Source: Candidatus Woesearchaeota archaeon
GTDB taxonomy: Archaea; Nanobdellota; Nanobdellia; Woesearchaeales; DSVV01
Length of the DNA: 64,000 bases
Assembly (NCBI GenBank): GCA_016192995.1
Contig: JACPTB010000002.1
Coordinates: forward strand, 98,283 to 162,282
Direction: 5' to 3'
Position numbers and translations under genes: made by a program
The notes under the pieces: generated by a model
Told to the model about the DNA's origin: nothing
What the model saw: only the letters and a program-made list of their open reading frames with translations
Database searches by the model: none
Shown here: positions 711 through 60,301 of the stretch, one piece after another
Position numbering within the stretch: position 1 is the first letter of the stretch
Layout of the letters: every line of letters starts with the position of its first letter

Positions 711-792
711 GGTTTGATTATATTTTCCACATTTTCTACAGAACCACAGATAAGCAAAACACATATAAATCTCTATTCTCAGAAAACTCATT

Positions 793-6449: not shown

Positions 6450-6455
6450 TATTTA

Positions 6456-6632
6456 GAGAACTTTGCAAAATTATGGTTACTGCCAATTTCGTGAGCATTT
6501 TCGAAATATTTATCGGGCAATTTTCGAGGTTCCTTGCCGACAGGCAAGTCTTATAATCCCGATCTTTAGTCGAGATTATATTTATAGAGAGAAAATTGCT
6601 TTGTTTAACAAAGATCTCAATGCGAACTGGCT
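6456..6632 (+). mobile_element. MITE-like repeat, family 1, copy A (degenerate right end, nested insertion in core loop)
   Basis: left end GAGAACTTTGCAAAATTATGGTTACTGCC shared with copies at 43079 and 48447; internal hairpin core 6517-6599 interrupted by ~53-nt insert. Confidence 0.7.
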
Positions 6633-11864: not shown

Positions 11865-12021
11865 GTATGTAATAAGTCTTGTATGGTTTTAGCGCCAGTT
11901 CAGCTTTTGAAGTGTGTTTCAATTGGATTTTTCTCTCTGGAACTCCGAAAAATCCCCAAAATGTATTTAAGAAGAGCTTCACAAAAGTAGGCGCTAAAAC
12001 CCCAGACGACTTATTACATAC
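11865..12021 (-). mobile_element. MITE-like element, family 2, copy B (157 bp) with TIR and 7-bp TSD
   Basis: TIR GTATGTAATAAGTC / GACTTATTACATAC; flanked by CACAAAA on both sides (11857-11863 and 12022-12028); core hairpin 11925-11955. Confidence 0.75.
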
Positions 12022-31862: not shown

Positions 31863-33587
31863 ATGGAAACAGATTTTTATCGAGAGATAATTGAAGCAGT
31901 AAAAAATAAAAAATTAGAACCAGAAAACTTAAACAAAATAAAGCGTGAACTTTCAAAAAAATATAAATTAGGATATATTCCAACAAATATTGAAATTTTA
32001 TTAAGAGCTAAAAAAACTGAGCGCGAGAAATTAAAAGCATTGCAATTAAAACCAACACGTTCTATTTCTGGGGTTGCAAACGTAGCAATTATGTCTGCGC
32101 CATATGCCTGCCCTCCGCAAGCGCAATGCACCTTCTGCCCTGGAGGTCCAAACTCGCAGTTTGGGACAGTTCCTAAATCATATACAGGCCATGAGCCAAG
32201 CACGATGAGAGGAATCAGAAATGACTATGATCCTTATTTACAAGTGTTTAATCGTATTCAGCAATATGTTTTGCTGGGGCATAGCTTTGATAAAATTGAA
32301 TTAATTATTATGGGTGGCACATTTACCAGTTACAGCAAAGTGTATCAGGAAAAGTTTATCAAATACGCTTTAAAAGCAATGAATGATTTTTCTGATCTTT
32401 TTTTTATTGAAAAAAGATTCAATATCGAAAAATTCAAGGAATTTTTCGAGCTGCCTGGAGATATTGAAGACCATGAGCGTGCAGCAAAAATTAAAGAAAA
32501 ATTGCTTAAAATAAAAGGAGACAGCGCGTTAGATAAAGAACAGCAGCGTAATGAAAAAGCAAATATAAAATGTGTTGGATTAACTTTGGAATCACGATCC
32601 GATTATTTGAAAAAAGATTATGCAAATTACATTCTTGAGCTTGGCTGCACAAGAGTTGAAATAGGAATACAGTCAGTGTATGAAAAACCTTTGATCATGG
32701 TAAAAAGGGGTAATACAACGCAAGATAATATAGAAGCAATCCGAGATCTGAAAGATCTCGGATTTAAAATAAACCTTCATTATATGTTAGGATTGCCTGG
32801 TATTAAAGACAAAAAGGAAGATCTTGAAGGTATGAAACAGTTATTTTCTAATCCTGATTACAAACCTGATATGTTAAAGATATATCCATGTATGGTGTTC
32901 AAAGGAACACCATTGTATGAAGAGTATGTTAAAGGAAACTATAAACCATACAGTACTGAAGAAGCTGCTAAAATGATTGCAGCATTCAAGCCTTTTGTCG
33001 GCCGTTATTGCAGAATAATGAGAGTTAACCGTGACATTCCTTCTAAAATGAACGAAGCAGGAATTGATAAAACCAATTTACGTCAGTATGTAGACCAGTT
33101 TAATCATCACTGCAAATGTATAAGATGCAGAGAAGTTGGCCACGTTTATAAAAAAACAGGAAAAAAACCTGAAAAGATAGCATGTATTATTGAAGAATAT
33201 GAAGCAAGCAAAGGAAAAGAATTCTTTATTTCATATGAAGATAAAGAACAAGATATTCTGCTCGGATTTATCAGAATGCGATTCCCGAGCAGAATATTAA
33301 GAAAGGAGATTACTAAAACAAGTGCTTTAATCAGAGAGCTTCATGTGTATGGATCTGCAGTAATGATTGGAAAAAAAGAATCGTTATCCATAACAAGTAT
33401 TGCACAGCATAAAGGTTTAGGAAAAAAACTATTGAAAAATGCGGAAACTATTGCAAAGAAACAGGGAAAAGATAAAATAGTAATAATCGCAGCATTAGGA
33501 ACAAGAGAATACTATCGAAAATTAGGTTATAGAAAAGAAGGACCATATATGATAAAGAAACTTAGAGTTTCTTTATCAGTCGAGTAG
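31863..33587 (+). CDS. elp3: Elp3-family radical SAM / GNAT acetyltransferase
   Basis: CPPQAQCTFCPGGPNSQFGTVPKSYTGHEPSTMRGIRNDYDPY Elp3 signature; C-terminal GNAT QHKGLGKKLL; stop codon TAG spans junction with MITE. Confidence 0.85.
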   Translation: METDFYREIIEAVKNKKLEPENLNKIKRELSKKYKLGYIPTNIEILLRAKKTEREKLKALQLKPTRSISGVANVAIMSAPYACPPQAQCTFCPGGPNSQFGTVPKSYTGHEPSTMRGIRNDYDPYLQVFNRIQQYVLLGHSFDKIELIIMGGTFTSYSKVYQEKFIKYALKAMNDFSDLFFIEKRFNIEKFKEFFELPGDIEDHERAAKIKEKLLKIKGDSALDKEQQRNEKANIKCVGLTLESRSDYLKKDYANYILELGCTRVEIGIQSVYEKPLIMVKRGNTTQDNIEAIRDLKDLGFKINLHYMLGLPGIKDKKEDLEGMKQLFSNPDYKPDMLKIYPCMVFKGTPLYEEYVKGNYKPYSTEEAAKMIAAFKPFVGRYCRIMRVNRDIPSKMNEAGIDKTNLRQYVDQFNHHCKCIRCREVGHVYKKTGKKPEKIACIIEEYEASKGKEFFISYEDKEQDILLGFIRMRFPSRILRKEITKTSALIRELHVYGSAVMIGKKESLSITSIAQHKGLGKKLLKNAETIAKKQGKDKIVIIAALGTREYYRKLGYRKEGPYMIKKLRVSLSVE

Positions 33588-33843
33588 TACGTAATAAGTC
33601 TGGGGTTTTAGCACCTACTTTTGTGAAGCTGTTCTTATATTTGCTGTGAGGATTTTTCGGGGTTCCTTGCCGATAGGCAAGTCTTATAATCCCAGACGCA
33701 AGCCAAATTATGACTCCTTGATTTATAAGAAAAATCCAATTGAAACACACTTCAAAAGCTGAACTGGCGCTACCTGAATCCGAAGGATCTCAGGGATTAA
33801 AAATAGTAATTTTTAATAAAACCATAAAAGACTTATTACGTAC
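33587..33843 (+). mobile_element. MITE-like element, family 2, copy C (257 bp) with TIR and 8-bp TSD
   Basis: TIR GTACGTAATAAGTCT / AGACTTATTACGTAC; direct repeat GTCGAGTA at 33579-33586 and 33844-33851; core hairpin 33650-33737 carrying a nested insert. Confidence 0.85.
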
Positions 33844-42301: not shown

Positions 42302-43117
42302 ATGTACGAAGAACTATTCCGCGAAATTGGCTTAAGTCCAAACGAAGCTAGAATTTACGAAGCATTGCTCCAAACAGGCGATGCTTCAGTGCAGACTATT
42401 GCAATTAAGGCAAACATTCATCGGAGAAATGCATATGATGCTTTAAGCAGACTTTTAGAAAAAGGATTAATCTCCCAAACCATTCTCAGCAATGAGCAGC
42501 ACTTCAAAGCAACCAATCCAGAACGATTGCTTTCCATGATAAAAGAAAAAGAAGATAAAATAACAAAAGCGCTTCCGGAAATCAAGCAAAAGTTTTTTCA
42601 AAAACAAGAAAAAGAACAAGCATATATCTACAAAGGCATCCAAGGATTCAGAAATTACATGCAGGATATTCTTGATGTTGGCAAAGATGTTTATTGCATT
42701 GGCGCTAAAGGTGGATGGTTTGAACCACGATTAAAAACATTCAGATTTAGATTCTATGAAGAACTCAAAAAAAAGAACGTCAAATGCTACCATTTATTTG
42801 ATGCAGAAATGATGCAACAGCAGAACGAAGCTGAAGGACCTGTACCAGTACATCTCCATGAAGCACGATTTTTACCTGAAAAATATTCCACACACTCAGC
42901 AATTGATATTTTAGATGATCGTGTCATTACTTTCACTGGATTAAATATTAACAAGCTTGATGATGATGTCACTATATTTGTGTTAATAAGCAAAAAACTA
43001 GCTGATGATTACAAAAAATGGTTTTGGCTGATGTGGAATGCAAGTTCCCCAATTGATAAAGGAGAAGAAAAAGCTAAAGAGAACTTTGCAAAATTATGGT
43101 TACTGCCTATTTTGTGA
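42302..43117 (+). CDS. trmB: TrmB-family transcription regulator (paralog 2); last 13 codons MITE-derived
   Basis: REIGLSPNEARIYEALLQTGDASVQTIAIKANIHRRNAYDALSRLLEKGL; C-terminus ENFAKLWLLPIL encoded by MITE copy D. Confidence 0.65.
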   Translation: MYEELFREIGLSPNEARIYEALLQTGDASVQTIAIKANIHRRNAYDALSRLLEKGLISQTILSNEQHFKATNPERLLSMIKEKEDKITKALPEIKQKFFQKQEKEQAYIYKGIQGFRNYMQDILDVGKDVYCIGAKGGWFEPRLKTFRFRFYEELKKKNVKCYHLFDAEMMQQQNEAEGPVPVHLHEARFLPEKYSTHSAIDILDDRVITFTGLNINKLDDDVTIFVLISKKLADDYKKWFWLMWNASSPIDKGEEKAKENFAKLWLLPIL

Positions 43118-43222
43118 GCATTTTCGAAATACTTATCGGGCAATTTTCGGAGTTCCAGAGAGAAAATTGCTTTGTTTAACAAAGATCTCAATGCGAACTG
43201 GCAGTAACCCGAGCTTTGCATT
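43079..43222 (+). mobile_element. MITE-like repeat, family 1, copy D (right end truncated)
   Basis: GAGAACTTTGCAAAATTATGGTTACTGCC ... GGCAGTAACCCGAGCTTTGCA; core hairpin 43140-43170. Confidence 0.75.
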
Positions 43223-43282
43223 CTTATAAATATTTAATTATATTTTATATAAGGGTATTAAGAATTTCGTAGAAAATTCTTA

Positions 43283-43336
43283 CCACTAACAAGATAATAA
43301 TTTAAAAGATAATACCACTGGCAAGATAATAATTTT
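43283..43336 (+). promoter_or_regulatory. tandem direct repeats CCACT(A/G)(A/G)CAAGATAATAATTT upstream of nrdJ
   Basis: two copies spaced 31 bp, ~150 bp upstream of the nrdJ start. Confidence 0.3.
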
Positions 43337-43482
43337 GAGTGATATTGAAAATATATTTTTAAGAAACATAATATTTATATACCACGCCATGCCGTAAAAA
43401 TGAAGATATCTTGTATAATTAAACAGAAGCAACCACAAGATATTGTGTACTATCCAACGACGAACAAAAGAGGCTGAACGTC

Positions 43483-46400
43483 ATGAATGAACAAAAAATC
43501 CTGCGAATTAAAAAAAGAACTGGTGAATATGTTGGATTTGATCTGAAGAAAATTTCTAATGCTATTTTCAAAGCTGCCCAGGCAGTGGGAGGTTCTGATT
43601 ATAAAATCTCAGAACGATTAGCAGAACAAGTTTTTGACATGCTCAATGAACAGGACTTGAAAGAAGACATACCTTCAGTGGAAGATGTTCAGGATTGCGT
43701 TGAAAAAGTGCTTATTGAAACAGGACATGCAAAAACAGCAAAAGCTTTTATCTTATATAGACAAAAACGTGCAGAAGCACGATTAAAAGCTGATGCATTA
43801 GTTGGTATAAAAGGTTTGGAAGAAAAGCAAGATCCTTTTGGCGTGAATGAAGAATTATTCGGCAGTTCATTAACCAGCCATAATATCAAAGTTACGGTAA
43901 CTGAACCAATTGCAAAAATGTTTACGTATAACAGCAAATTATCCAAGTTAGTGGATAAAAATAAAATTAATGCCTATAGAAAATTATTTTATATGCTCAA
44001 GGATATGCAGAAGGAGGGTTCGTTGCCATTGCATCCTGCAAATGATTATTTAGCAGGCAATGAACTTGCCATGGATATTTACAGGAAAAAATATTATGTC
44101 CACGATCTTGATGATAACCTTATTGAGCAGCGTCCGGAAGATGTATTTGTAAGGCTTGGTTCTTATCTTGCATCTATTGAAGAAGATGAAGACAATCAAG
44201 TGTATTTTGCCCAGGAATTCTATAAAATGCTTTATGAAGGATATTTTGTGCCTGGCGGCAGAGTAATTGCTGGAGCTGGAGATTTATATAGATTAAAAAC
44301 ATTAGCAAATTGCTTTGTTTCAGTGATGGAAGATGATAACATTGAATCTATTTACAAAGCTGCTTTCGAATGTGCGCGAACATATTCATATGGGGGAGGA
44401 ATTGGCGTTGATATTTCTACCCTGCGTCCAAGAGAAGCTGTGGTACATAATGCAGCAAATTTCTCAACAGGCAGCGTTTCATTCATGGAAATCTACTCAT
44501 TAACAACAGGGTTAATTGGTCAAGCTGGAAGGCGAGGCGCATTAATGCTAACTATTGATGTTAAGCATCCTGATATTCTTAATTTTATTAGAGTCAAACA
44601 AGAATCAAATTGGGTGACAAAACAGATTAGGGAGCAATGCAGCTGGTCAGGAAAATTCAACGCTGAACAGCTGGATGCGATTGAAAAACAAGTTCGTGAA
44701 AACACCCAGGTAAGGTTTGCAAATATTAGCATGAAAGTTACTGATGAATTCATGACTGCTGTTGAAGAGCAAAATAAGTATGGAAAGGATAAAATAGTAG
44801 TGTATAAAAAATTTAGCAAATTGATTATTAATAGAGTTAACCAAAGCAAAGAAATGAATTTTGCCTTTGGCATTCCTTCAAAATATTTAGAGAATTATGA
44901 GTTATATAAAGTATTTGAAACCATTGAAGAAGCAAATGAGTTTATACATAAAGAAACAAACAAACAGATCTCCAAGCAATTGCTTGAAAATGTGCAGAAC
45001 AGGGACATTTATGGAGATGTAATTGTACCAGTAGAATCACAAAATTATGATTTAGCAGTGAGATATTCAGGTGATTATTTATTATATTTTAGTTCTGAAC
45101 CTGCAGGAGAAACAAGAAGATTAGTAAAAGCGCGGGATATTTGGGATGAATTTGTTAAAGGTAATTATCAAACAGCTGAGCCAGGATTAATATTCTGGTC
45201 AAGAATGACAAAGTATTCACCTTCTAATTATATAGGGAGACCAATTGCAAGTACAAACCCCTGTATTGCAGGAAACTCACAGGTATCAACAAGTAAAGGA
45301 TTGCAGCAAATAAAAGAGCTTGTTGGTAAAACGCCTCAGATTCTAACTGACAACCGAGTGCCTATACAAGTGAGAGATACTAACGGAAGAATTATGTTGC
45401 TCGAACAAAAACAACAAGGAGTAAGTTTTGACACTATAGAAGCAGCATGGTCATCGGGAATTAAAGAAACCTATAAACTTACCACAAAAAAGGGCTATGA
45501 AATCACTGCAACAGGTGATCATAAGATTATGACTACTGAAGGTTTTAAGCAGTTACATGAACTTACACCTAAAGATAAAATTTTAATCCAAAAAGGAGAA
45601 GGCATGGGAAACAATGATAAGCTATTATCTATTGAAAGAGATGAAATTATCAAAGGAGATAATAATCATATCTATCATTACAAATTCCCCACAACATGGT
45701 CAAAAGAACTTGGGCAATTGCTTGGTTGGACAGTAGGAGATGGATTTATCACTCCTGAACCAGATAATAGACTTGGGTTAGTATTTAGTAAAGAAGATGA
45801 AGACGTGATGAGCCAGTTAAAGAAGTTTATTGAGGAGATATATGGAAAAGAAACAAAACCAAGCATCAGAGAGTCTACAACACAATTAAGATACCATAGT
45901 AAATATTTTTGTGATTTTCTACGTAGATTAGGCATCAAAAGTGTAAAAGCTGAACTTAAGCAAGTTCCGCATAGGATATTTACTGCGCCAAAAGAAGCAG
46001 TAGTAGGATTTTTACAGGGATTGTTTACTGCTGATGGAACTATGGCAGTTGGCGAAAAAGGGAATTATATTCGATTAACTTCTAAGTCAGAAAAGCTTCT
46101 GAAAGAAATACAAATAATACTTATTAACTTAGGGATGTTATCTACAATCTATGAACGCCATCGAACTCCTCAGAAAAAATTTAATTACTATAATGCAGCT
46201 GGAGAATATAAAGAGTACATAACAGATGGGAAATTATGGGAGTTAAGTATAACTAAAGGAAGCTTGCAGCGATTTGTTGAAGAAATTGGGTTTATAGGAA
46301 GTAAACACCAAGAAAGAATAAAAGTATTTCTCACAAAGAAACAATACCAAGAACACTTTTACGATACTATAAAAAGCATAGAACCACAGGGAAAACAAGA

Positions 46401-47730
46401 AGTATTTGATCTAACAGAACCACGAACACATTCTTTTATAGCTAATGGCATTGTTATTTCAAATTGTGGTGAAGTGCCATTAGAAGACGGCGGCGCTTGT
46501 AATCTTGGATCAATTAATCTTTCTCGGTTAGTAATTGATGGTTTTACTGATACTGCAAGAATTAACTGGAACGAACTTGAACGAGTAACAAAGTTGGCTA
46601 CACGATTTTTAGATAATGTTGTTGGCTGGAATATTTCATTGAATGCTCTTGATAAACAACGGAGTGCTGCTGCAGAAACACGAAGACTTGGTTTGGGTGT
46701 TATGGGAATTGCAGATATGTTATTTCAGCTTGGTTTAGAATATGATAGTGAAGAGGGTATAGCAGTTATTGAGAAAGTTTGTCAGGTTATTGCTAATGCA
46801 GGTTATCGTGAATCCGCAGAATTAGCTGAAGAAAAGGGAGCTTCACCAGTATTTGATTATAACAAATACAGCCGCAACCCATTTTTTAAAGAAGCTCTTG
46901 ATGACAATACTAAAGAATTAGTCAAGAAAAAAGGATTGCGGAATATTGCAATACTTTCTATTGCGCCAACAGGAACTATTTCAAATATTGTATTAGGGTA
47001 TAAAGGAGAGCAAAAGAATTATATTGGTGTTAGCGGCGGTGTTGAACCGGTATTTGCAATATTTTACACGAGAAGAAGTGAAAATTTCGGCAACAAACGA
47101 TTTAACATCTTCCATTCAACAGTAAGCGCTTATTTGGATAAAAAAGGGCTCCAGGAAAAAGCGCAGTATGCAACAAGTGAAGACGAACTCCGCCAACTGT
47201 TGCCTGGATGCTTTTTTAGAACTGCCCATTATATTGAGCCTGAAAAAAGAGTTTTAATTCAGGGAGACTGCCAAAAATATACTGACCATAGTATTTCATC
47301 AACCGTCAATTTACCTGAAAGCATAAGCCCTGAAACCATTTCAGAGATTTACATTAAAGCATGGAAATTTGGCTTAAAAGGGATCACTATTTACCGTGAT
47401 GGAAGCAGGTACCCTATTTTAAGCATTCAGCAACAGCAAAGCGCATTTCAAGATTTCAAGAAAAAACAATTCAAATATGTCTCTGATGGAAAAGAAATCA
47501 TAGTAAGAGGCGACCAAGTTATAAAGCTGCCTCAGGGAAAGCTTTCAACGCCGTATCATGCGCAGAGAGAAAACATTCAAGGGATAGTGTTAACCGAGAT
47601 CACTGATCAACCAGCGATAACTGAAGAAGACAGTTCTAATAAAAATGAAGATCATAAAGATGATAACAAAGCTAAAGTCTGCACTATTAGTTTTGAAGAT
47701 GGAAAGCTTGTTAAATCATGCTCAGAGTAA
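43483..47730 (+). CDS. nrdJ: class II (adenosylcobalamin-dependent) ribonucleotide reductase with ATP-cone and intein
   Basis: N-terminal ATP-cone ILRIKKRTGEYVGFDLKKISNAIFKA; catalytic TNP-C...GEVPLEDGGACNLGSINL; C-terminal GLKGITIYRDGSR and terminal Cys pair. Confidence 0.85.
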   Translation: MNEQKILRIKKRTGEYVGFDLKKISNAIFKAAQAVGGSDYKISERLAEQVFDMLNEQDLKEDIPSVEDVQDCVEKVLIETGHAKTAKAFILYRQKRAEARLKADALVGIKGLEEKQDPFGVNEELFGSSLTSHNIKVTVTEPIAKMFTYNSKLSKLVDKNKINAYRKLFYMLKDMQKEGSLPLHPANDYLAGNELAMDIYRKKYYVHDLDDNLIEQRPEDVFVRLGSYLASIEEDEDNQVYFAQEFYKMLYEGYFVPGGRVIAGAGDLYRLKTLANCFVSVMEDDNIESIYKAAFECARTYSYGGGIGVDISTLRPREAVVHNAANFSTGSVSFMEIYSLTTGLIGQAGRRGALMLTIDVKHPDILNFIRVKQESNWVTKQIREQCSWSGKFNAEQLDAIEKQVRENTQVRFANISMKVTDEFMTAVEEQNKYGKDKIVVYKKFSKLIINRVNQSKEMNFAFGIPSKYLENYELYKVFETIEEANEFIHKETNKQISKQLLENVQNRDIYGDVIVPVESQNYDLAVRYSGDYLLYFSSEPAGETRRLVKARDIWDEFVKGNYQTAEPGLIFWSRMTKYSPSNYIGRPIASTNPCIAGNSQVSTSKGLQQIKELVGKTPQILTDNRVPIQVRDTNGRIMLLEQKQQGVSFDTIEAAWSSGIKETYKLTTKKGYEITATGDHKIMTTEGFKQLHELTPKDKILIQKGEGMGNNDKLLSIERDEIIKGDNNHIYHYKFPTTWSKELGQLLGWTVGDGFITPEPDNRLGLVFSKEDEDVMSQLKKFIEEIYGKETKPSIRESTTQLRYHSKYFCDFLRRLGIKSVKAELKQVPHRIFTAPKEAVVGFLQGLFTADGTMAVGEKGNYIRLTSKSEKLLKEIQIILINLGMLSTIYERHRTPQKKFNYYNAAGEYKEYITDGKLWELSITKGSLQRFVEEIGFIGSKHQERIKVFLTKKQYQEHFYDTIKSIEPQGKQEVFDLTEPRTHSFIANGIVISNCGEVPLEDGGACNLGSINLSRLVIDGFTDTARINWNELERVTKLATRFLDNVVGWNISLNALDKQRSAAAETRRLGLGVMGIADMLFQLGLEYDSEEGIAVIEKVCQVIANAGYRESAELAEEKGASPVFDYNKYSRNPFFKEALDDNTKELVKKKGLRNIAILSIAPTGTISNIVLGYKGEQKNYIGVSGGVEPVFAIFYTRRSENFGNKRFNIFHSTVSAYLDKKGLQEKAQYATSEDELRQLLPGCFFRTAHYIEPEKRVLIQGDCQKYTDHSISSTVNLPESISPETISEIYIKAWKFGLKGITIYRDGSRYPILSIQQQQSAFQDFKKKQFKYVSDGKEIIVRGDQVIKLPQGKLSTPYHAQRENIQGIVLTEITDQPAITEEDSSNKNEDHKDDNKAKVCTISFEDGKLVKSCSE
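45262..46464 (+). other. intein (401 aa) with LAGLIDADG homing-endonuclease domain, inserted before catalytic Cys of nrdJ
   Basis: N-terminal splice CIAGNS, block B TGDHKIMT, LAGLIDADG motifs LLGWTVGDGF and VVGFLQGLFTADG, C-terminal HSFIANGIVISN followed by extein Cys. Confidence 0.8.
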
Positions 47731-47828
47731 GAATTTCTTTTCCTTTTTTATTATCACTTGATGATTAAGGATATTTATTAATAAGTAGAGCTTATTAGAT
47801 ACAAGAACTTTACAAAATAGGTACTATT

Positions 47829-48446
47829 ATGGCTAGATATGGAAAAATCCAGGTATATACCGGAGATGGAAAAGGAAAAACAACAGCATCATTAGGATTA
47901 GCTCTGAGAACTGTTGGCCAAGGCGGTAAAGTATTTATTGTGCAATTTATGAAAGGCGGCGCATACACCGGTGAATTTATCAGCATCAAAAATTTCCTCC
48001 CAAAGATTGATATTATACAATTTGGAAGGGGCTGTGTTAAAGAAAAAAAACAAATGAAATTATTAGGGATTAATGAAGGAGCAAAATATTTTGATTTTGT
48101 GAGAGAAGATATTGAATGCGGACCTTGCAGATATTGTTTTCTTAATGACCAGGAACAAGTAAAATTCGTGAAAAGCGCTTTTGCCTTAGCGCAGAAGTTA
48201 ACTGCTTCAGAAGATTATGATTTAATTATTCTTGATGAAGTTAATGTAGCATTGAAATTAGGATTTTTGAGCATTGAAGAAGTGCTTGAATTAATGGAAA
48301 AAAAACACCCGCAATTGGAGTTAATAATGACCGGCAGAGATGCCCATGAAAAAGTAATGGAGAAAGCAGATTTAGTTACTGAAATGAAATTAGTCAAGCA
48401 TTATTTCGACAAAGGCACTTCTGCAAGAAGAGGGATTGAGTATTAA
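47829..48446 (+). CDS. cobO: ATP:corrinoid adenosyltransferase (CobO/CobA/BtuR family)
   Basis: VYTGDGKGKTTASLGLALRTVGQGGKVFIVQFMKG P-loop signature. Confidence 0.8.
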   Translation: MARYGKIQVYTGDGKGKTTASLGLALRTVGQGGKVFIVQFMKGGAYTGEFISIKNFLPKIDIIQFGRGCVKEKKQMKLLGINEGAKYFDFVREDIECGPCRYCFLNDQEQVKFVKSAFALAQKLTASEDYDLIILDEVNVALKLGFLSIEEVLELMEKKHPQLELIMTGRDAHEKVMEKADLVTEMKLVKHYFDKGTSARRGIEY

Positions 48447-48608
48447 GAGAACTTTGCAAAATCATGGTTACTGCCTATTTTGTGAGCATTTTCGAAATAC
48501 TTATCGAGCAATTTTCGGAGTTCCAGAGAGAAAATTGCTTTGTTAAAAAGATATCTCAATGCGAACCGGCAGTAACCCGAGCTTTGCGAGTATTTTGCAA
48601 AGTTCTCC
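48447..48608 (+). mobile_element. MITE-like repeat, family 1, copy E (162 bp, intact palindrome)
   Basis: 16-bp perfect TIR GAGAACTTTGCAAAAT / ATTTTGCAAAGTTCTC, inner IR GGTTACTGCC / GGCAGTAACC; core hairpin 48508-48538. Confidence 0.8.
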
Positions 48609-50330: not shown

Positions 50331-52361
50331 ATGCCCCTTGAAAAAGTCATTAAACGGAATGGTGAAACTGTAGTTTTTGATCCAAAAAAGATCACAGATG
50401 CATTGTACAAAGCAGCGCAAGCTATTGGAGGAACTGATGAAGAGCTCTCTAAAGCATTAACAAAAAAGATTGTAGCAAAGATAGAAGAATTATTTCCTGA
50501 CAAAATCCCCCATGTTGAAGATGTTCAGGATGTTGTTGAGCGTGTTTTAATAGAAGACAATCATGTAAAAACAGCAAAAGCATATATTTTGTATAGGGAA
50601 CGCCAAAAAAATATCCGGGAGGTAAAACAGTCATTAGTAGGAGGATATGTTGATAAGCGCTTTACTATTAATGCATTAAAAATTCTCAAAGAACGATTAT
50701 TAATGAAAAAAGAAGATGGCGCTGTTGAAACGCCTGAAGATATGTTTAGAAGAGTAGCAAAAGAAATAGCAAAAGCAGATAAACAATATGATAATGAGCC
50801 AAACCTGAAAGAAACTGAAGATAAGTTTTTCGAGTGTTTAAACAAGCTTGATTTTTTGCCAAACTCGCCCTGCTTAATGAACGCAGGAACCAAAAATCAG
50901 CAGTTAATTTCATGCTATGTCCTACCAATTGAAGACAGCACTGAAAGTATTTATACAACATTAAAAAATGCTGCAATGGTGCATCGTACAGGTTCAGGAA
51001 CAGGCTTTTCTTTTTCCAATTTAAGACCAAAAGAAGATACGATCGATGATTCTCGTGGATTTTCAGCAGGGCCAATTCCATTTATGCATGTCTATGATAA
51101 ATCAACAGAAATAATCAAGAAAACTGGTTTAAGGCGTGGCGCAAACATGGCAGTGTTGCGTGTTGATCACCCCAATATCCTCGATTTTATTACCGCAAAA
51201 GAAAATCCCCATCACTTGAGAAACTTCAACATCTCTGTTGGCATTACAAAAGAATTTATGGATGCATTAGACAACAGAAAACGATATCCATTAATTAATC
51301 CGCGAACAAAGCAGGAAGTTCGTTTATTGCCTGCTAAAGAGGTCTTTGATTTAATTGCAACAATGTCGTGGAAAAATGGTGAGCCAGGAGTTATTTTCCT
51401 TGATACTATTAATGAGAAGAACCCTGTTCCTGAACTTGGTGAAATAAAAACAACCTCTGCCTGCGGAGAAGTGCCTTTGCTTGAATATGAAGCATGCCCG
51501 CTTGGCTCAATAAACTTATCTAATATGGTGCAAGGAGGCAGGGTCAATTTAGCTGCATTGCGGGACACTGCGTGGATTGCAGTGCATTTTCTTGATAATG
51601 TTATTGATGTAAATAAATACACCTTAAAAGACAGTGAAAAAATAACTAATGATAATAGAAAAATAGGAGTTGGAGTTATGGGTTTTGCAGATATGCTGTA
51701 TCAGTTAGGGGTTCCTTATAATAGTGAAGAAGCAATAAAAGTAGCAGAAAGAATCATGAAATTTATTCGTGATGAAGCAAGATTAGCTTCAGAAGCTCTA
51801 GCAAAAAAAAGAGGAGTATTTGCAAATTATGAAAAAAGCATATATGCAAAAAAAGGAATAAAGCAAAGAAATGCGACAACAACTGCTATTGCGCCAACAG
51901 GAACAATCTCATTAATTGCTGATTGTTCTTCAGGCATTGAACCGAATTTCGCTTTAAGTTACATGAAAAAAATCACCGGTGGGGATGAGTTATTATATGT
52001 TAATAAGCATTTAAAAAGCGAATTATTGAAAAGAGAGATTTATTCTGAAGATTTAATGAAAGAAATTGCATCAAAAGGATCACTCCAATCATTTTTGGAT
52101 TTAGCATCAGAAATCAGAAAAGTGTTTGTTATTAGCCATGAAATACCTGCAGAATATCATGTATTAATCCAAGCAGCATTTCAAAAATATTGCGATAATG
52201 CAGTTTCAAAGAGCGTTAATTTAGAGTACACTTCAAGCAAAGAAGATGTCGTTAAAACCTTCAAGCTTGCTTACAAACTAGGGTGTAAAGGAATAACCAT
52301 TTATCGAGATAGAAGCAGAGAAGATCAGATTTTAACACTATTAGGGGGAGAAGCAATATGA
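50331..52361 (+). CDS. nrdJ: class II ribonucleotide reductase (short paralog, no intein)
   Basis: ATP-cone VIKRNGETVVFDPKKITDALYKA; TSACGEVPLLEYEACPLGSINL; GCKGITIYRDRSR. Confidence 0.8.
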   Translation: MPLEKVIKRNGETVVFDPKKITDALYKAAQAIGGTDEELSKALTKKIVAKIEELFPDKIPHVEDVQDVVERVLIEDNHVKTAKAYILYRERQKNIREVKQSLVGGYVDKRFTINALKILKERLLMKKEDGAVETPEDMFRRVAKEIAKADKQYDNEPNLKETEDKFFECLNKLDFLPNSPCLMNAGTKNQQLISCYVLPIEDSTESIYTTLKNAAMVHRTGSGTGFSFSNLRPKEDTIDDSRGFSAGPIPFMHVYDKSTEIIKKTGLRRGANMAVLRVDHPNILDFITAKENPHHLRNFNISVGITKEFMDALDNRKRYPLINPRTKQEVRLLPAKEVFDLIATMSWKNGEPGVIFLDTINEKNPVPELGEIKTTSACGEVPLLEYEACPLGSINLSNMVQGGRVNLAALRDTAWIAVHFLDNVIDVNKYTLKDSEKITNDNRKIGVGVMGFADMLYQLGVPYNSEEAIKVAERIMKFIRDEARLASEALAKKRGVFANYEKSIYAKKGIKQRNATTTAIAPTGTISLIADCSSGIEPNFALSYMKKITGGDELLYVNKHLKSELLKREIYSEDLMKEIASKGSLQSFLDLASEIRKVFVISHEIPAEYHVLIQAAFQKYCDNAVSKSVNLEYTSSKEDVVKTFKLAYKLGCKGITIYRDRSREDQILTLLGGEAI

Positions 52362-57600: not shown

Positions 57601-57608
57601 ATAATAGA

Positions 57609-57766
57609 CTCAGGTGAAAATGTAGTTTTTGGCATCTTTTGGTGAAGCTCTTCTTAATTTTACCTTGAGGATTTTTCGGAGTGCCAGAGAGAAAAATCCA
57701 ATCGAAATACTCTTCAAGAGCTGAACTGATGCCAAAACCGAGGCTATGCCGAGATTTTCACCTGAG
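57609..57766 (+). mobile_element. MITE-like element, family 2 variant, copy F (158 bp)
   Basis: 13-bp TIR CTCAGGTGAAAAT / ATTTTCACCTGAG; core hairpin 57669-57699 GGATTTTTCGGAGTGCCAGAGAGAAAAATCC. Confidence 0.75.
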
Positions 57767-57813
57767 CCTAAACAATAAAAACTTTTATTAACCAGTAAAC
57801 GAGGTAATATTAT

Positions 57814-58312: not shown

Positions 58313-58353
58313 AAGAAGAGCTTCACAAAATAGGCGCTAAAAACTACATTTTC
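58313..58353 (-). repeat. solo fragment of family-2 MITE arm (copy G)
   Basis: reverse complement GAAAATGTAGTTTTTAGCGCCTATTTTGTGAAGCTCTTCTTCC matches left arm of copy F. Confidence 0.6.
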
Positions 58354-58361
58354 TAAAGAAC

Positions 58362-59078
58362 CTAAGGTCGTTGTTGTTGCTTCATATCCGCAGTAATTCT
58401 GCTCAATTCATTAACATTTTCTGTCATAATAGGCAATACTTTCTGAAATACTTTTTCAAGCGCTTGGATATCAGACCCAATAGTAGTTAAATTTCTATCA
58501 TAATCTCCTATTCTACCAAGAACACCTTTATGAAGGGTATCAAATTGTTTTTGAAGATCAACAAATTGCTGTTCAATTTTCAAAATCCTTCCTTCAGTCC
58601 TATCTTTCCAGTCAATAATTTTATTGATGCTTTTAACAATTTCATTCCATTTCTCATCAATTATTGCTTCTGCTATCTCTTCAATGCGCTCTAAGCCTGG
58701 AATCTGGGGAGAACCTGACTGACTGCCTATGTTCCCCATGCTTTGAGCATCATTATAATCCTGATTCTGCCCATAATCTTGAGCAATTGATTGAATGTTA
58801 TTTCCTGGAAATTGCTTATTTTCTTCAGGAAGCATTTCATTTGCCATCATACCTGGATTTGGTCCCATACCAACACCTGTCTTAATTTCAGCTTGATTCA
58901 TCGCGTCAAAAATATCAGTCATATCAACACCTTCACGCTGTAAGGTGTCAATGATTTGACTATTCCCTAATCCTTTTCGTTTTAAATCCAATACTCTATC
59001 AGTAGGAGGTCCCTTTACACGAGGAGGTCCTAATTGAGGATTTGCTTCCTCTTTTTTACCAAAACTAAAGAGAGGCAT
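58362..59078 (-). CDS. hypothetical protein with low-complexity middle and C-terminal coiled coil
   Basis: 238 aa; last gene of a four-gene minus-strand cluster. Confidence 0.4.
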   Translation of the reverse strand: MPLFSFGKKEEANPQLGPPRVKGPPTDRVLDLKRKGLGNSQIIDTLQREGVDMTDIFDAMNQAEIKTGVGMGPNPGMMANEMLPEENKQFPGNNIQSIAQDYGQNQDYNDAQSMGNIGSQSGSPQIPGLERIEEIAEAIIDEKWNEIVKSINKIIDWKDRTEGRILKIEQQFVDLQKQFDTLHKGVLGRIGDYDRNLTTIGSDIQALEKVFQKVLPIMTENVNELSRITADMKQQQRP

Positions 59079-59095
59079 GATACATCACAAGCAAG

Positions 59096-59698
59096 TTAAT
59101 GGCCACCGCGATCAGGCCAGTCAGGAGTCATTTTACCTGACATTAAGCGCACGGTGAGCGCTGCAACGATTAACACAAATAAAAGCCCGAGGACTTTTGG
59201 ATGATAAATGGTTCTTTGAAGATTAGTCTGATAATTTCCAGTTGCTGTGCTTCCTCCAGGATCTTGCTTGGTAAGAACAAGTTGTTCTCCAGCTTGACCA
59301 AGTTCAAGCTGCTTTTGACCAAAGGAAGTAGATAATGCGCCAAGGATGATAATAACTATAACAATAATAAATGTCCATTGAAGCCCTGCATGATTTTTCA
59401 TCATGGATGAAATGCTGTCATCTGAAACGCCAAACAGTTTTACGCCAATGAGAGCAAAGATTACAAGGATGAACAAAATAGTAAACCAGGGAGCTGCAAA
59501 CATGACTATGGAAGTTATATTTGGAGAGAGAACAACAACAAAGGAAACAACAATAGCTAAAATCGCATGTATGATTTTATTTGCGCCAAGAGCTTTGGTG
59601 TATTGCAATGCTGCGTAGATAAGTACTAAAACTAAAATAAAAGAAAGAACGGGTGTAAAGTGCTGCAATAATTCAATATTAATAACTGGAACAGCCAT
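59096..59698 (-). CDS. polytopic membrane protein, paralog 3 of tandem trio
   Basis: 200 aa, 4-5 TM; C-terminal DRGGH tail shared with paralog 2. Confidence 0.5.
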   Translation of the reverse strand: MAVPVINIELLQHFTPVLSFILVLVLIYAALQYTKALGANKIIHAILAIVVSFVVVLSPNITSIVMFAAPWFTILFILVIFALIGVKLFGVSDDSISSMMKNHAGLQWTFIIVIVIIILGALSTSFGQKQLELGQAGEQLVLTKQDPGGSTATGNYQTNLQRTIYHPKVLGLLFVLIVAALTVRLMSGKMTPDWPDRGGH

Positions 59699-60301
59699 TT
59701 AATGGTCACCTCGACCACCGCCCAAGAGTTTATTGAACGATTCAAGACCTTTACCCACTTTAGACAATGCTTCTCCCTGCCCTGGTTCACGAAGTATAAA
59801 CCATAACACTATAGCAAATACTAAGATAACAATAACTAATGAAGTTGTATCAGGACCCCACCAATTGGTATAAAATGATGGCCACCAGTCTGCTGCTGAA
59901 CCGAAAAAGTAGACTACAGCAGCAAATGAAATAAATGCAATAATTCCGCCAAGATTATGAACAAAATTTGGCGCTACTATGCCGGTTAATAATAATACCA
60001 TCATAATAGCAATTGCTACGACAGAGATATTTGGCAGCGCTGAATTCATAATAACGACAAGATCTGCGCCCTCAGGATATTTTCCCAAGACATGAGGCAT
60101 CACAACCATAAGAGATAAAATTAAAGCAAACATAGCATTGAAATTCTTGTGATGCTGACCAAGAATATTAGTTTTTTGGAGAATCGCAAATACGATTAAA
60201 AACACAAGAAAAAAAGGTAAAATTACCTCAGTTAAATTATAAGATTCTAAAAATGTTAAAAAACTACCTGCACCATATGTTGAACTATAAGGGTATGCCA
60301 T
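59699..60301 (-). CDS. polytopic membrane protein, paralog 2
   Basis: 200 aa; VILPFFLVFLIVFAILQKTNILG and KNFNAMFALILSLMV conserved with paralog 1; abuts paralog 3. Confidence 0.5.
   Translation of the reverse strand: MAYPYSSTYGAGSFLTFLESYNLTEVILPFFLVFLIVFAILQKTNILGQHHKNFNAMFALILSLMVVMPHVLGKYPEGADLVVIMNSALPNISVVAIAIMMVLLLTGIVAPNFVHNLGGIIAFISFAAVVYFFGSAADWWPSFYTNWWGPDTTSLVIVILVFAIVLWFILREPGQGEALSKVGKGLESFNKLLGGGRGDH

Follow-up and report, generated by a model that had tools for sequence, protein, structure and literature searches.

The 31-nt hairpin core caps a more extensive conserved fold as its apical stem-loop, and that fold makes up the interior of genuine non-autonomous DNA transposons (MITEs) of about 160 bp. 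Copies recur in the window, as we call the whole 64-kb stretch of DNA analysed here, and the family is dispersed in DPANN archaea of the Woesearchaeota/Nanoarchaeota type. The interior is better conserved than the terminal inverted repeats (TIRs), the opposite of the usual MITE pattern, and selection is likely to act on it in folded, single-stranded form, the strand in question being the one on which the loop is GGAGTTCCAGAGA; an RNA identity for this strand is plausible. Taken as a whole, the observations are best explained by a MITE family whose interior acts as a folded single strand, most plausibly RNA, and we put the chances of this explanation at about even.

DPANN archaea have tiny, densely packed genomes, and their gene regulation is little understood. 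Under the explanation that we favour, the TIRs would supply mobility and the interior would travel as a passenger, with RNA being made through co-transcription of the element with its neighbours. Stems in such an RNA would need only to pair, all helices being kept by compensatory double substitutions, and the apical loop and the G.A motifs would be the recognition sites for a protein or for another RNA. The interior might make insertions tolerable or useful to the host, or aid the spread of the element, possible roles being 3'-end formation, stability and insulation between tightly packed genes. Even on an ordinary reading, these repeats establish a new superfamily among archaeal MITEs, characterised by 8-bp duplications and of practical use as a marker of assembly breaks, as a binning aid and for tracing recent transposition in uncultured archaea.

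A MITE family with terminal inverted repeats and 8-bp duplications

The window (33.5% G+C) encodes archaeal proteins, including CDP-archaeol synthase, ELP3, TrmB regulators and class I/II-type ribonucleotide reductases, and about 2% of it consists of the repeat family. BLAST and nhmmer searches within the window identified six elements and one fragment (Table 1), which adjoin unrelated genes (UvrD-like helicase, CarS, ELP3, TrmB, CobA and PhoU-like). None of 100 shuffles held as many matches to the core, the numbers expected by chance being 0.07 for the loop search and 0.00 for the 31-mer search. The sequence-only reading had placed the core, with an identical 13-nt loop, in all seven copies. 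The core is in fact intact in four of them, exact in B, D and E, which share one loop sequence, and with one loop mismatch in F; it is split in A and C and absent from G. Both 9-nt stem halves are kept in A and C, in which the loop is broken after GGTTCC by an insert of 52-70 nt. This insert starts with TTGCCGAYAGGCAAGTCTTATAATCCC in each copy before the sequences diverge, its initial 27 nt in copy A matching the insert of copy C, and the 3' arm of copy C holds an additional palindromic insert of 45 nt.

Table 1 Elements of the repeat family in the window, with their cores, loops and inserts (window coordinates)
Feature	Position	Strand	Description
MITE copy A	6455..6631	+	TIR type GAGAACTTTGCAAAAT; right end truncated
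Core stems, copy A	6517-6525 and 6591-6599		
Loop insert, copy A	6534-6585		52 nt
MITE copy B	11865..12021	-	Complete, 157 bp; TIR GTATGTAATAAGTC, 14/14
Core hairpin, copy B	11925..11955	-	Exact 31-mer GGATTTTTCGGAGTTCCAGAGAGAAAAATCC, 0 mismatches; 9-bp stem GGATTTTTC/GAAAAATCC and 13-nt loop GGAGTTCCAGAGA; fold -8.3 kcal/mol
MITE copy C	33587..33843	+	257 bp; TIR type as in copy B; perfect TSD GTCGAGTA
Core stems, copy C	33650-33658 and 33729-33737		Loop enlarged by a 70-nt interior (alignment, fold)
MITE copy D	43078..43219	+	Without right TIR
Core, copy D	43140-43170		GCAATTTTC-GGAGTTCCAGAGA-GAAAATTGC
Loop, copy D	43149-43161		GGAGTTCCAGAGA, exact
MITE copy E	48447..48607	+	Complete, 161 bp; TIR 16/16; no clear TSD
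Core, copy E	48508-48538		GCAATTTTC-GGAGTTCCAGAGA-GAAAATTGC
Loop, copy E	48517-48529		GGAGTTCCAGAGA, exact
MITE copy F	57607..57768	+	Complete; TIR GGCTCAGGTGAAAAT, left tip degenerate
Core, copy F	57669-57699		Single loop mismatch; variant GGAGTGCCAGAGA, also given as GGAGTGCC
Copy G	58313..58362	-	Left-arm fragment: TIR GGTTCTTTAGAAAATG, P2 and GTGAAGC motif; without core

Public collections were scanned with the core pattern TTT(T)CGGRGTKCCAGAGAGAAA(A). Genome assemblies yielded 20 loci, all in MAGs of DPANN type, most of them labelled Woesearchaeota, Nanoarchaeota or Nanoarchaeia MAGs and four labelled Methanosarcinales, and 37 metagenome loci matched the pattern; among viral contigs there were 0 matches to the core and 0 to the loop insert. 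Across these 57 loci and the window, nhmmer delimited 58 unique copies or fragments. Only two of the 58 lie inside a long open reading frame, namely copy B, whose overlap is with a spurious long ORF, and a copy at one outside locus (L040).

Target duplications (TSDs) were assessed in 40 complete copies from the window and the 57 related loci, with TIR boundaries set from the inverted repeat alone at a tolerance of 2 nt. The 16-nt terminal inverted repeat matched at 13 or more of 16 positions in all 40 copies and at 16 of 16 in 15, and in the window the TIRs of copies B, C and E show no mismatch over 14-16 nt. An 8-bp TSD matching at 7-8 of 8 positions flanked 26 of the 40 copies and was perfect in 17, against 2.5% and 0.26%, respectively, when the left flank of one copy was paired with the right flank of another; copy B has the TSD TTTTGTGG (8/8 with a 1-nt shift allowed). 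The elements measure 153-168 bp and are without coding capacity. The TIRs and 8-bp TSDs demonstrate what the sequence-only reading had proposed in calling the repeats MITEs, and together they indicate mobilisation in trans by a transposase of the DDE type, one whose staggered cuts in the target are 8 bp apart.

Near-identical copies with different duplications occur within one population (L043, L054 and L035; L030 and L045), which points to recent transposition activity. Public short-read assemblies of the copy E locus break at copy E. An exact-protein lookup for an empty site of copy E listed five contigs, and all five end at or just past the upstream gene, leaving none to compare.

Architecture and covariation of the interior

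Every complete copy shares a common plan, given here from the outside inwards. P1 is the 16-nt terminal inverted repeat; a short linker leads to P2, a helix of 10 bp (for example, GGTTGCCATC/GATGGCAACC); and an asymmetric loop of about 5 nt against 1 nt separates P2 from P3, in which a 5' arm GY-GA-RGCW faces a 3' arm WGCY-GA-RC to form 2 bp, a tandem G.A and 4 bp. Inside P3, a large internal loop of 17-19 nt against 18-21 nt, fixed in length and free in sequence, gives way to the core, a 9-bp helix capped by the purine-rich 13-nt loop GGAGTTCCAGAGA. The 3' arm only carries, between P2 and P1, a small hairpin of the form C-GA-stem-loop-GA-G. The module between the TIRs spans about 110 nt. On its own, the 31-mer forms a weak hairpin, its 9-bp stem and 13-nt loop having a folding energy of about -8 kcal/mol and only a small advantage over shuffles (z -1.6 to -2.3). 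The whole of copy E folds at -52.4 kcal/mol (z -5.6).

Pairs were counted in 41 full-length copies against the consensus structure. Standard pairing occupied 92.8% of cells, compared with 76.1% in column shuffles, and double changes were present in 32 of the 41 pairs, a number reached by none of 500 shuffles; sliding the 3' partners by 1-3 columns left 33-47% pairing. P2 is 98.5% paired with nine of its ten pairs compensated, P3 is 96.2% paired, and the core helix is 99.5% paired with compensation at five of nine pairs. The core stem exists in at least ten paired versions (GCAA, GCAT, GGAT, GAAT, ACAT, GCAG, GCCGA and others), and unpaired variation in this larger set is limited to five single mismatches or wobbles.

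The two stem versions in the window, GGAT/ATCC and GCAA/TTGC, are both fully paired, as the sequence-only reading had noted, and both of the changes between them are compensated. Only the base pairs at positions 2 and 4 distinguish them, and not the whole of positions 2-4, position 3 being A in both. Intermediates exist among the outside copies (GCAT/ATGC in nine copies, GAAT/ATTC and a G.T version), which argues that the GCAA and GGAT versions arose in separate steps and not in one recombination event.

Retrieval with an exact core pattern at least partly forces the invariance of the loop and of the inner 5 bp in the outside loci; covariation in P1, P2, P3 and the outer four core pairs is unaffected by it. 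Within the window, copies E and B provide an unbiased contrast: they share 50% identity overall (85/169), yet the loop matches at 13 of 13 positions and either stem half at 7 of 9. Two divergent copies, retrieved by profile and not by pattern, keep the stem and have the loops GGAGTTGCGGAGGA and GGGGTTGCAGAGGA.

The interior helices are better conserved than the TIRs. Mean pairwise identity over the 41 copies is 27-32% in the flanks, 37-40% in the two large linkers, 51-55% in P1 (the TIR), 71% in P2, 73-79% in P3 and 79-81% in the outer core stem (P4). The linkers have thus diverged to near flank level, indicating that the family is old enough for neutral decay to be visible, which tells against the idea that no selection acts on the structure. 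On that account, template switching (quasipalindrome correction) or arm-to-arm gene conversion would maintain the pairing, and a small number of master copies that spread recently would account for the conservation. Stem changes are indeed nearly all from Watson-Crick to Watson-Crick pairs with few wobble intermediates, as templated correction predicts, and several subfamilies are nearly identical internally. Correction should, however, also erase the G.A mismatches, the 5-nt/1-nt loop and the non-complementary linkers of 18-20 nt, which were kept in 39 of 41 copies while neighbouring pairs turned over, and the helices remain 71-81% identical beside such linkers; we regard this account as improbable. 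Where the sequence-only reading saw in paired change the signature of a functional hairpin, we find selection on the structure likely, but covariation alone is no proof of a functional RNA here.

The interior is carried by at least five TIR types (GGCGGCATTGAAAAG, GGCTCTGTCC.., GGGGTTGTTGCGAAAT, GTAYGTAATAWGTC and GAGAACTTTGCAAAAT), four of them in the window. Conversely, an element of 317 bp at an outside locus (L003) combines TIR type GGCGGCATTGAAAAG, the 3'-arm GA hairpin and a 7/8 duplication with an unrelated, G+C-rich interior, and a 103-bp derivative without the core (L044) has the perfect duplication TTTTAATG. These two elements indicate that the interior is not needed for TIR-dependent insertion or for recognition by the transposase. 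The sequence-only reading had described two families with unrelated terminal sequences joined to a single 31-nt module. This does not hold, in that the two align over most of their length, sharing P2, the tandem G.A loop, the fixed-length linkers and the core and differing strongly only in the terminal helix. Its suggestion of modular, chimeric evolution gains some support in the broader form of one interior with several TIR types and one TIR type with an unrelated interior.

Strand-specific features and the nature of the probable folded strand

Three features distinguish one strand of the interior from the other. In P3, 39 of 41 copies have the tandem G.A with GA in each arm, and the adjoining pair covaries (C-G or T-A in 37 of 41, U.G in 3 and a mismatch in 1); on the opposite strand, the same G.A positions would be C.T/T.C mismatches. 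The 3'-arm hairpin, which is GA/GNRA-like, is present in 28 of 41 copies in ten stem versions, each consisting of GA, a stem of 2-4 bp, a loop of 3-5 nt (mostly GAA or GAAA), the returning stem and GA; it occurs in 4.6% of shuffled segments and in no reverse complements, and the 5' arm has nothing equivalent. An A excess marks both linkers on one and the same strand, with 20 v 8 dereplicated copies holding more A than T in one linker and 21 v 3 in the other; the linkers are not complementary to each other, pairing at -2.7 kcal/mol within their own copy versus -2.8 kcal/mol with those of other copies. A symmetric DNA palindrome would give one A-rich and one T-rich linker. Together, the strand-specific G.A motifs, the hairpin confined to the 3' arm and the A-rich linkers favour a folded single strand as the probable object of selection. 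RNA would be the more plausible form of that strand, since single-stranded DNA specific to one strand is not an evident stage in the movement of a DDE transposon. In single-stranded DNA, too, GAA-loop hairpins with sheared G.A pairs have high stability.

Measures of overall folding were less discriminating. Neither strand has the lower MFE, the mean difference being -0.3 +/- 6.8 kcal/mol. Counting all helices, there were 42 G:T against 34 A:C pairs; in the well-aligned P2-P4 the figures were 15 and 6, which is only suggestive, and a cruder whole-arm count gave G:T 105 vs A:C 177; the classic wobble signature of an RNA strand is weak here. End recognition or template-switch correction is also able to keep the two halves of a transposon's DNA palindrome symmetric.

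These measures bear on a DNA-level role restricted to transposition and without RNA function, which we consider rather unlikely. The palindrome and its centre would then let the transposase and/or a host architectural protein synapse ends lying about 160 bp apart, with the centre (the A-tracts AATTTT/AAAATT and the fixed 13-mer) acting as a bend or protein-binding site or extruding as a cruciform, and pairing would persist through the inability of copies that no longer fold or bind to transpose. Such a role accords with the element being a proven transposon of recent activity, judging by near-identical copies at different sites, with the equal folding of both strands and the lack of an overall G:U excess, and with linkers whose length is fixed and sequence free, as helical phasing predicts; Correia elements with a central IHF site offer a precedent. 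Recognition of a symmetric duplex, however, leaves unexplained the conserved, non-complementary GA/GA in both arms, the hairpin on the 3' arm only and the A-richness of the same strand. Elements with the same TIRs but without this interior have nonetheless inserted with TSDs, and the interior is the more conserved part, not the TIRs.

The orientation of the elements relative to genes gives the folded-strand explanation a weak hint at best. Insertions lie 0-25 nt past stop codons or about 45 nt 5' of start codons. Among the 52 copies with a callable upstream neighbour within 400 bp, 25 have the same orientation as the upstream gene and 27 the opposite one, which is random and counts against the explanation, and there is only a modest bias towards matching the downstream gene (28 v 12). 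In the window, copy E begins immediately 3' of the stop codon of the corrinoid adenosyltransferase gene, and copy B has as neighbours CDP-archaeol synthase on the minus strand and a glycosyltransferase on the plus strand (Pfam). The TrmB-like ORF upstream of copy D (42302-43117) runs into the left arm of the element, from which it takes its final codons and its stop.

A specific version of an RNA-based benefit to the host is that the element is an archaeal transcription terminator or insulator, in which T-runs (TTTT or TTTTT on both strands) and the hairpin would stop RNA polymerase arriving from either side, insertions between close-packed genes being retained for termination. The proximity to stop and start codons, the T4-T5 runs of the core on both strands and the occurrence of both orientations are all in keeping with this. 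Its T-runs are short, though, and the strand-specific features would be superfluous to it; archaeal intrinsic termination depends mainly on oligo-T and has no need of a 13-nt purine loop, G.A motifs or a three-way junction. We judge a terminator highly improbable.

The folded-strand explanation can be taken further, tentatively and as a proposal that is unlikely to be right in full. P2-P3-P4 may be a structured RNA, a three-way-junction hairpin with two tandem-G.A motifs and a conserved purine-rich apical loop, that is bound by a conserved DPANN protein and has been captured by different TIR pairs and carried by them through Woesearchaeota/Nanoarchaeota genomes, which would make it a mobile cis-regulatory RNA. 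The interior is held tighter than the ends and contains strand-specific structural motifs, which is what makes it a candidate mobile module that would act as a regulatory RNA or bind a protein. If the proposal is correct, a mobile cis-regulatory RNA would rewire transcript ends or stability in genome-reduced archaea, and the repeat family would offer a handle on the protein that reads the module.

Relation to known elements and motifs

Insertion sequences with 8-bp repeats include IS6, whose ends have GG tips and cTGTt and caaa motifs (PMC7986276; PMC6807381), and ISL3 elements, which start with GGCTCTT (ISArsp7, PMC6305408). The present family resembles MITEs of the IS6/IS26 type (such as MITEHarch3 and MITEBth2) or the ISL3 type in being small, multi-copy and intergenic, without an ORF, and in having TIRs and an 8-bp TSD. 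Many of its TIR types begin with GG and contain CTGT...AAA (GGCTCTGTCC.AAAAG, GGTTCTGTAGAAAATG and GGGGTTGTTGCGAAAT), as in IS6. The full IS6 TIR motif (GG tip, G at position 7, cTGTt/caaa) is found in GGCTCTGTCC.., GGTTCTGTAGAAAA and GGGGTTGTTGCGAAA, but not in GGCGGCATTGAAAAG, which has A at position 7, or in GTATGTAATAAGTC, a TIR type of the window that fits neither the IS6 nor the ISL3 consensus. A cognate transposase with matching ends was not found in the window and the 57 loci (about 500 kb) by a TIR scan (up to 3 mismatches), a scan for inverted repeats with TSDs (up to 3 kb), Pfam analysis of 30 window ORFs or tblastn with an IS26 transposase as query.

Hairpin-folding MITEs are a known kind. 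Correia/NEMIS of Neisseria, ERIC, RUP, BOX and RPE are short elements with TIRs that form long hairpins near genes, have a conserved central feature and can act as co-transcribed RNA. The present family has no sequence relationship to Correia/NEMIS and similar bacterial hairpin MITEs, whose hosts are bacteria, and the Correia TSD is TA, whereas the TSD here is 8 bp. It is unusual in that its interior is held tighter than its ends, with conserved G.A motifs and a fixed apical loop, and unlike usual MITEs it joins an interior of this kind to several TIR types. We know of no report of Correia-like elements with a tandem G.A, a three-way junction or a 13-nt apical loop common to several TIR types. 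REP/REPIN (RAYT) and IS200/IS605-derived elements, PATE and integron attC are ruled out by the TIRs and 8-bp TSDs; palindromes of the REP/REPIN or IS200/IS605-derived sort have no TIR-type ends and no TSD, being short GTAG-type palindromes or subterminal hairpins.

K-turn/L7Ae motifs are similar in having tandem sheared-type G.A/A.G between Watson-Crick helices, which occurs twice per element here. A K-turn consists of a C-stem, a 3-nt bulge and then tandem G.A/A.G that opens the NC-stem. The P3 G.A lacks an adjoining 3-nt bulge and lies inside a continuous helix, with the asymmetric loop 2 bp away, and is not a canonical K-turn; drawings of K-turn and BHB (splicing) motifs on P2/P3 were incompatible with the pairs supported by covariation.

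An RNA of the guide type, like the IS110 bridge RNA, would use the variable internal loops to specify its target. The conserved scaffold and the two internal-loop strands, fixed in length and variable in sequence, have such an appearance, but the longest word that is shared or complementary between loop and flank is 6.44 for a copy's own flanks versus 6.20 +/- 1.17 for the flanks of other copies. The variable loops are thus not complementary to the flanks, as bridge or seeker RNAs of IS110/IS1111 would require, and the TIRs and 8-bp TSD point to a DDE mechanism; a guide function is hardly credible.

Rfam 15 gave no match at gathering thresholds for the window and six loci, and none in a permissive search of copy E and the L003 element; below threshold, the one match was with a plant miRNA precursor, which scored 20 bits where the gathering score is 139.7. 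A scan for tRNA and tmRNA found none. In the literature, we found no paper describing the element and none combining Woesearchaeota, transposase and MITE, and the loop sequence returned unrelated PCR primers only. A census of archaeal MITEs (PMC11602168) is an automated listing in which the present family, its structure and its core are not described. It ranks a Woesearchaea genome, with 105 MITEs per Mb, as one of the most MITE-rich in archaea, a density consistent with 6-7 copies in the 64-kb window.

Placement relative to neighbouring genes

We examined the position of the miniature elements (MITEs) relative to adjacent genes, across all related loci and the window. Where a gene start faces an element, on either side, the gap between them falls in a tight cluster of ~40-57 nt, which puts the element just upstream of the expected archaeal BRE/TATA position. 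TATA-like boxes also lie 10-25 nt from many insertion points, and several of the duplicated 8-bp target sites are themselves TATA-like (ATATTTTA, CATAATTA, TTTTAATG). Together, the gap lengths, nearby boxes and duplicated 8-mers suggest that the elements either preferentially target promoter-edge DNA or survive only when inserted there.

Altered interiors, inserts and a probable remnant

Two related loci carry elements with altered interiors. The 317-bp element at L003, surrounded by the duplication TCTTGAAC/TATTGAAC, has the same GA hairpin (the small 3'-arm hairpin) beside its right terminal inverted repeat (TIR) as the MITEs, and encloses a G+C-rich, strongly self-complementary interior that is unrelated to the MITE interior and has no Rfam match. 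The 103-bp derivative at L044 retains P1, P2 and the 5' GCGAAG motif and has a perfect 8-bp duplication, TTTTAATG, on both sides. In the window, the right end of GGTTTGATTATATTTTCCACATTTTCTACAGAACC matches one of the MITE TIR types (GGTTCTGTAGAAAATG, minus strand); GGTTTGATTATATTTTCCACATTTTCTACAGAACC is probably the leftover of a nearly wholly deleted MITE.

Copies A and C, members of different subfamilies, share ~50% identity outside an apical-loop insert that both carry at the identical point, 3' of GGTTCC. The two inserts have their first 27 nt in common (TTGCCGAYAGGCAAGTCTTATAATCCC, with a 5-bp hairpin and then a second one) and unlike 3' parts. We found no TIR or target-site duplication belonging to the insert itself, and no further occurrence in the rest of the window, the related loci or viral contigs. 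The shared insert could reflect loop-specific insertion or exchange from one subfamily to another. The 3' arm of copy C holds a second insert, composed of two small palindromes; the corresponding arm of copy B lacks this insert and is otherwise nearly identical.

Features of the MITEs, their derivatives and neighbouring genes
Feature	Location	Length	Remark
MITE remnant (probable)	window 711-745		GGTTTGATTATATTTTCCACATTTTCTACAGAACC; directly 3' of stop codon of ORF 21-710
Apical-loop insert, copy A	window 6534-6585		
Apical-loop insert, copy C	window 33667-33728		
Second insert, copy C 3' arm	window 33773-33817	45 nt	CCTGAATCCGAAGGATCTCAGGGATTAAAAATAGTAATTTTTAAT
Ribonucleotide reductase with LAGLIDADG intein	window 43483-47730		between D and E
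Second ribonucleotide reductase paralog, without intein	window 50331-52361		just downstream of D-E segment
Altered element	L003 4797-5113	317 bp	TIRs of commonest MITE type (GGCTGCATTGAAA...)
Deletion derivative	L044 13758-13860	103 bp	core hairpin gone

The segment between copies D and E

Copies D and E are direct repeats with 95% identity (window 43078-48607), enclosing 5.2 kb that encodes the intein-containing ribonucleotide reductase and a corrinoid adenosyltransferase. This segment may be a MITE-flanked composite; the right end is missing in D, and E has no matching duplication. Elsewhere in the window, Pfam gave no match for two adjoining 200-aa ORFs (59096-60301, minus strand) or for nearby ORFs of 213-238 aa.

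Host labels and assembly breaks

Four element-bearing loci (L001, L004, L015 and L018) lie in MAGs that carry the label 'uncultured Methanosarcinales archaeon (binchicken)'; for the remaining element-bearing genome loci the label is Woesearchaeota, Nanoarchaeota or Nanoarchaeia. Mis-binning or mis-classification may explain the Methanosarcinales label, or the elements could have a wider range of hosts.

DPANN assemblies are fragmented by these MITEs. Among public short-read contigs with the gene upstream of copy E, all five listed (of six) end at the MITE, no more than ~50 nt past that gene (L058-L062).
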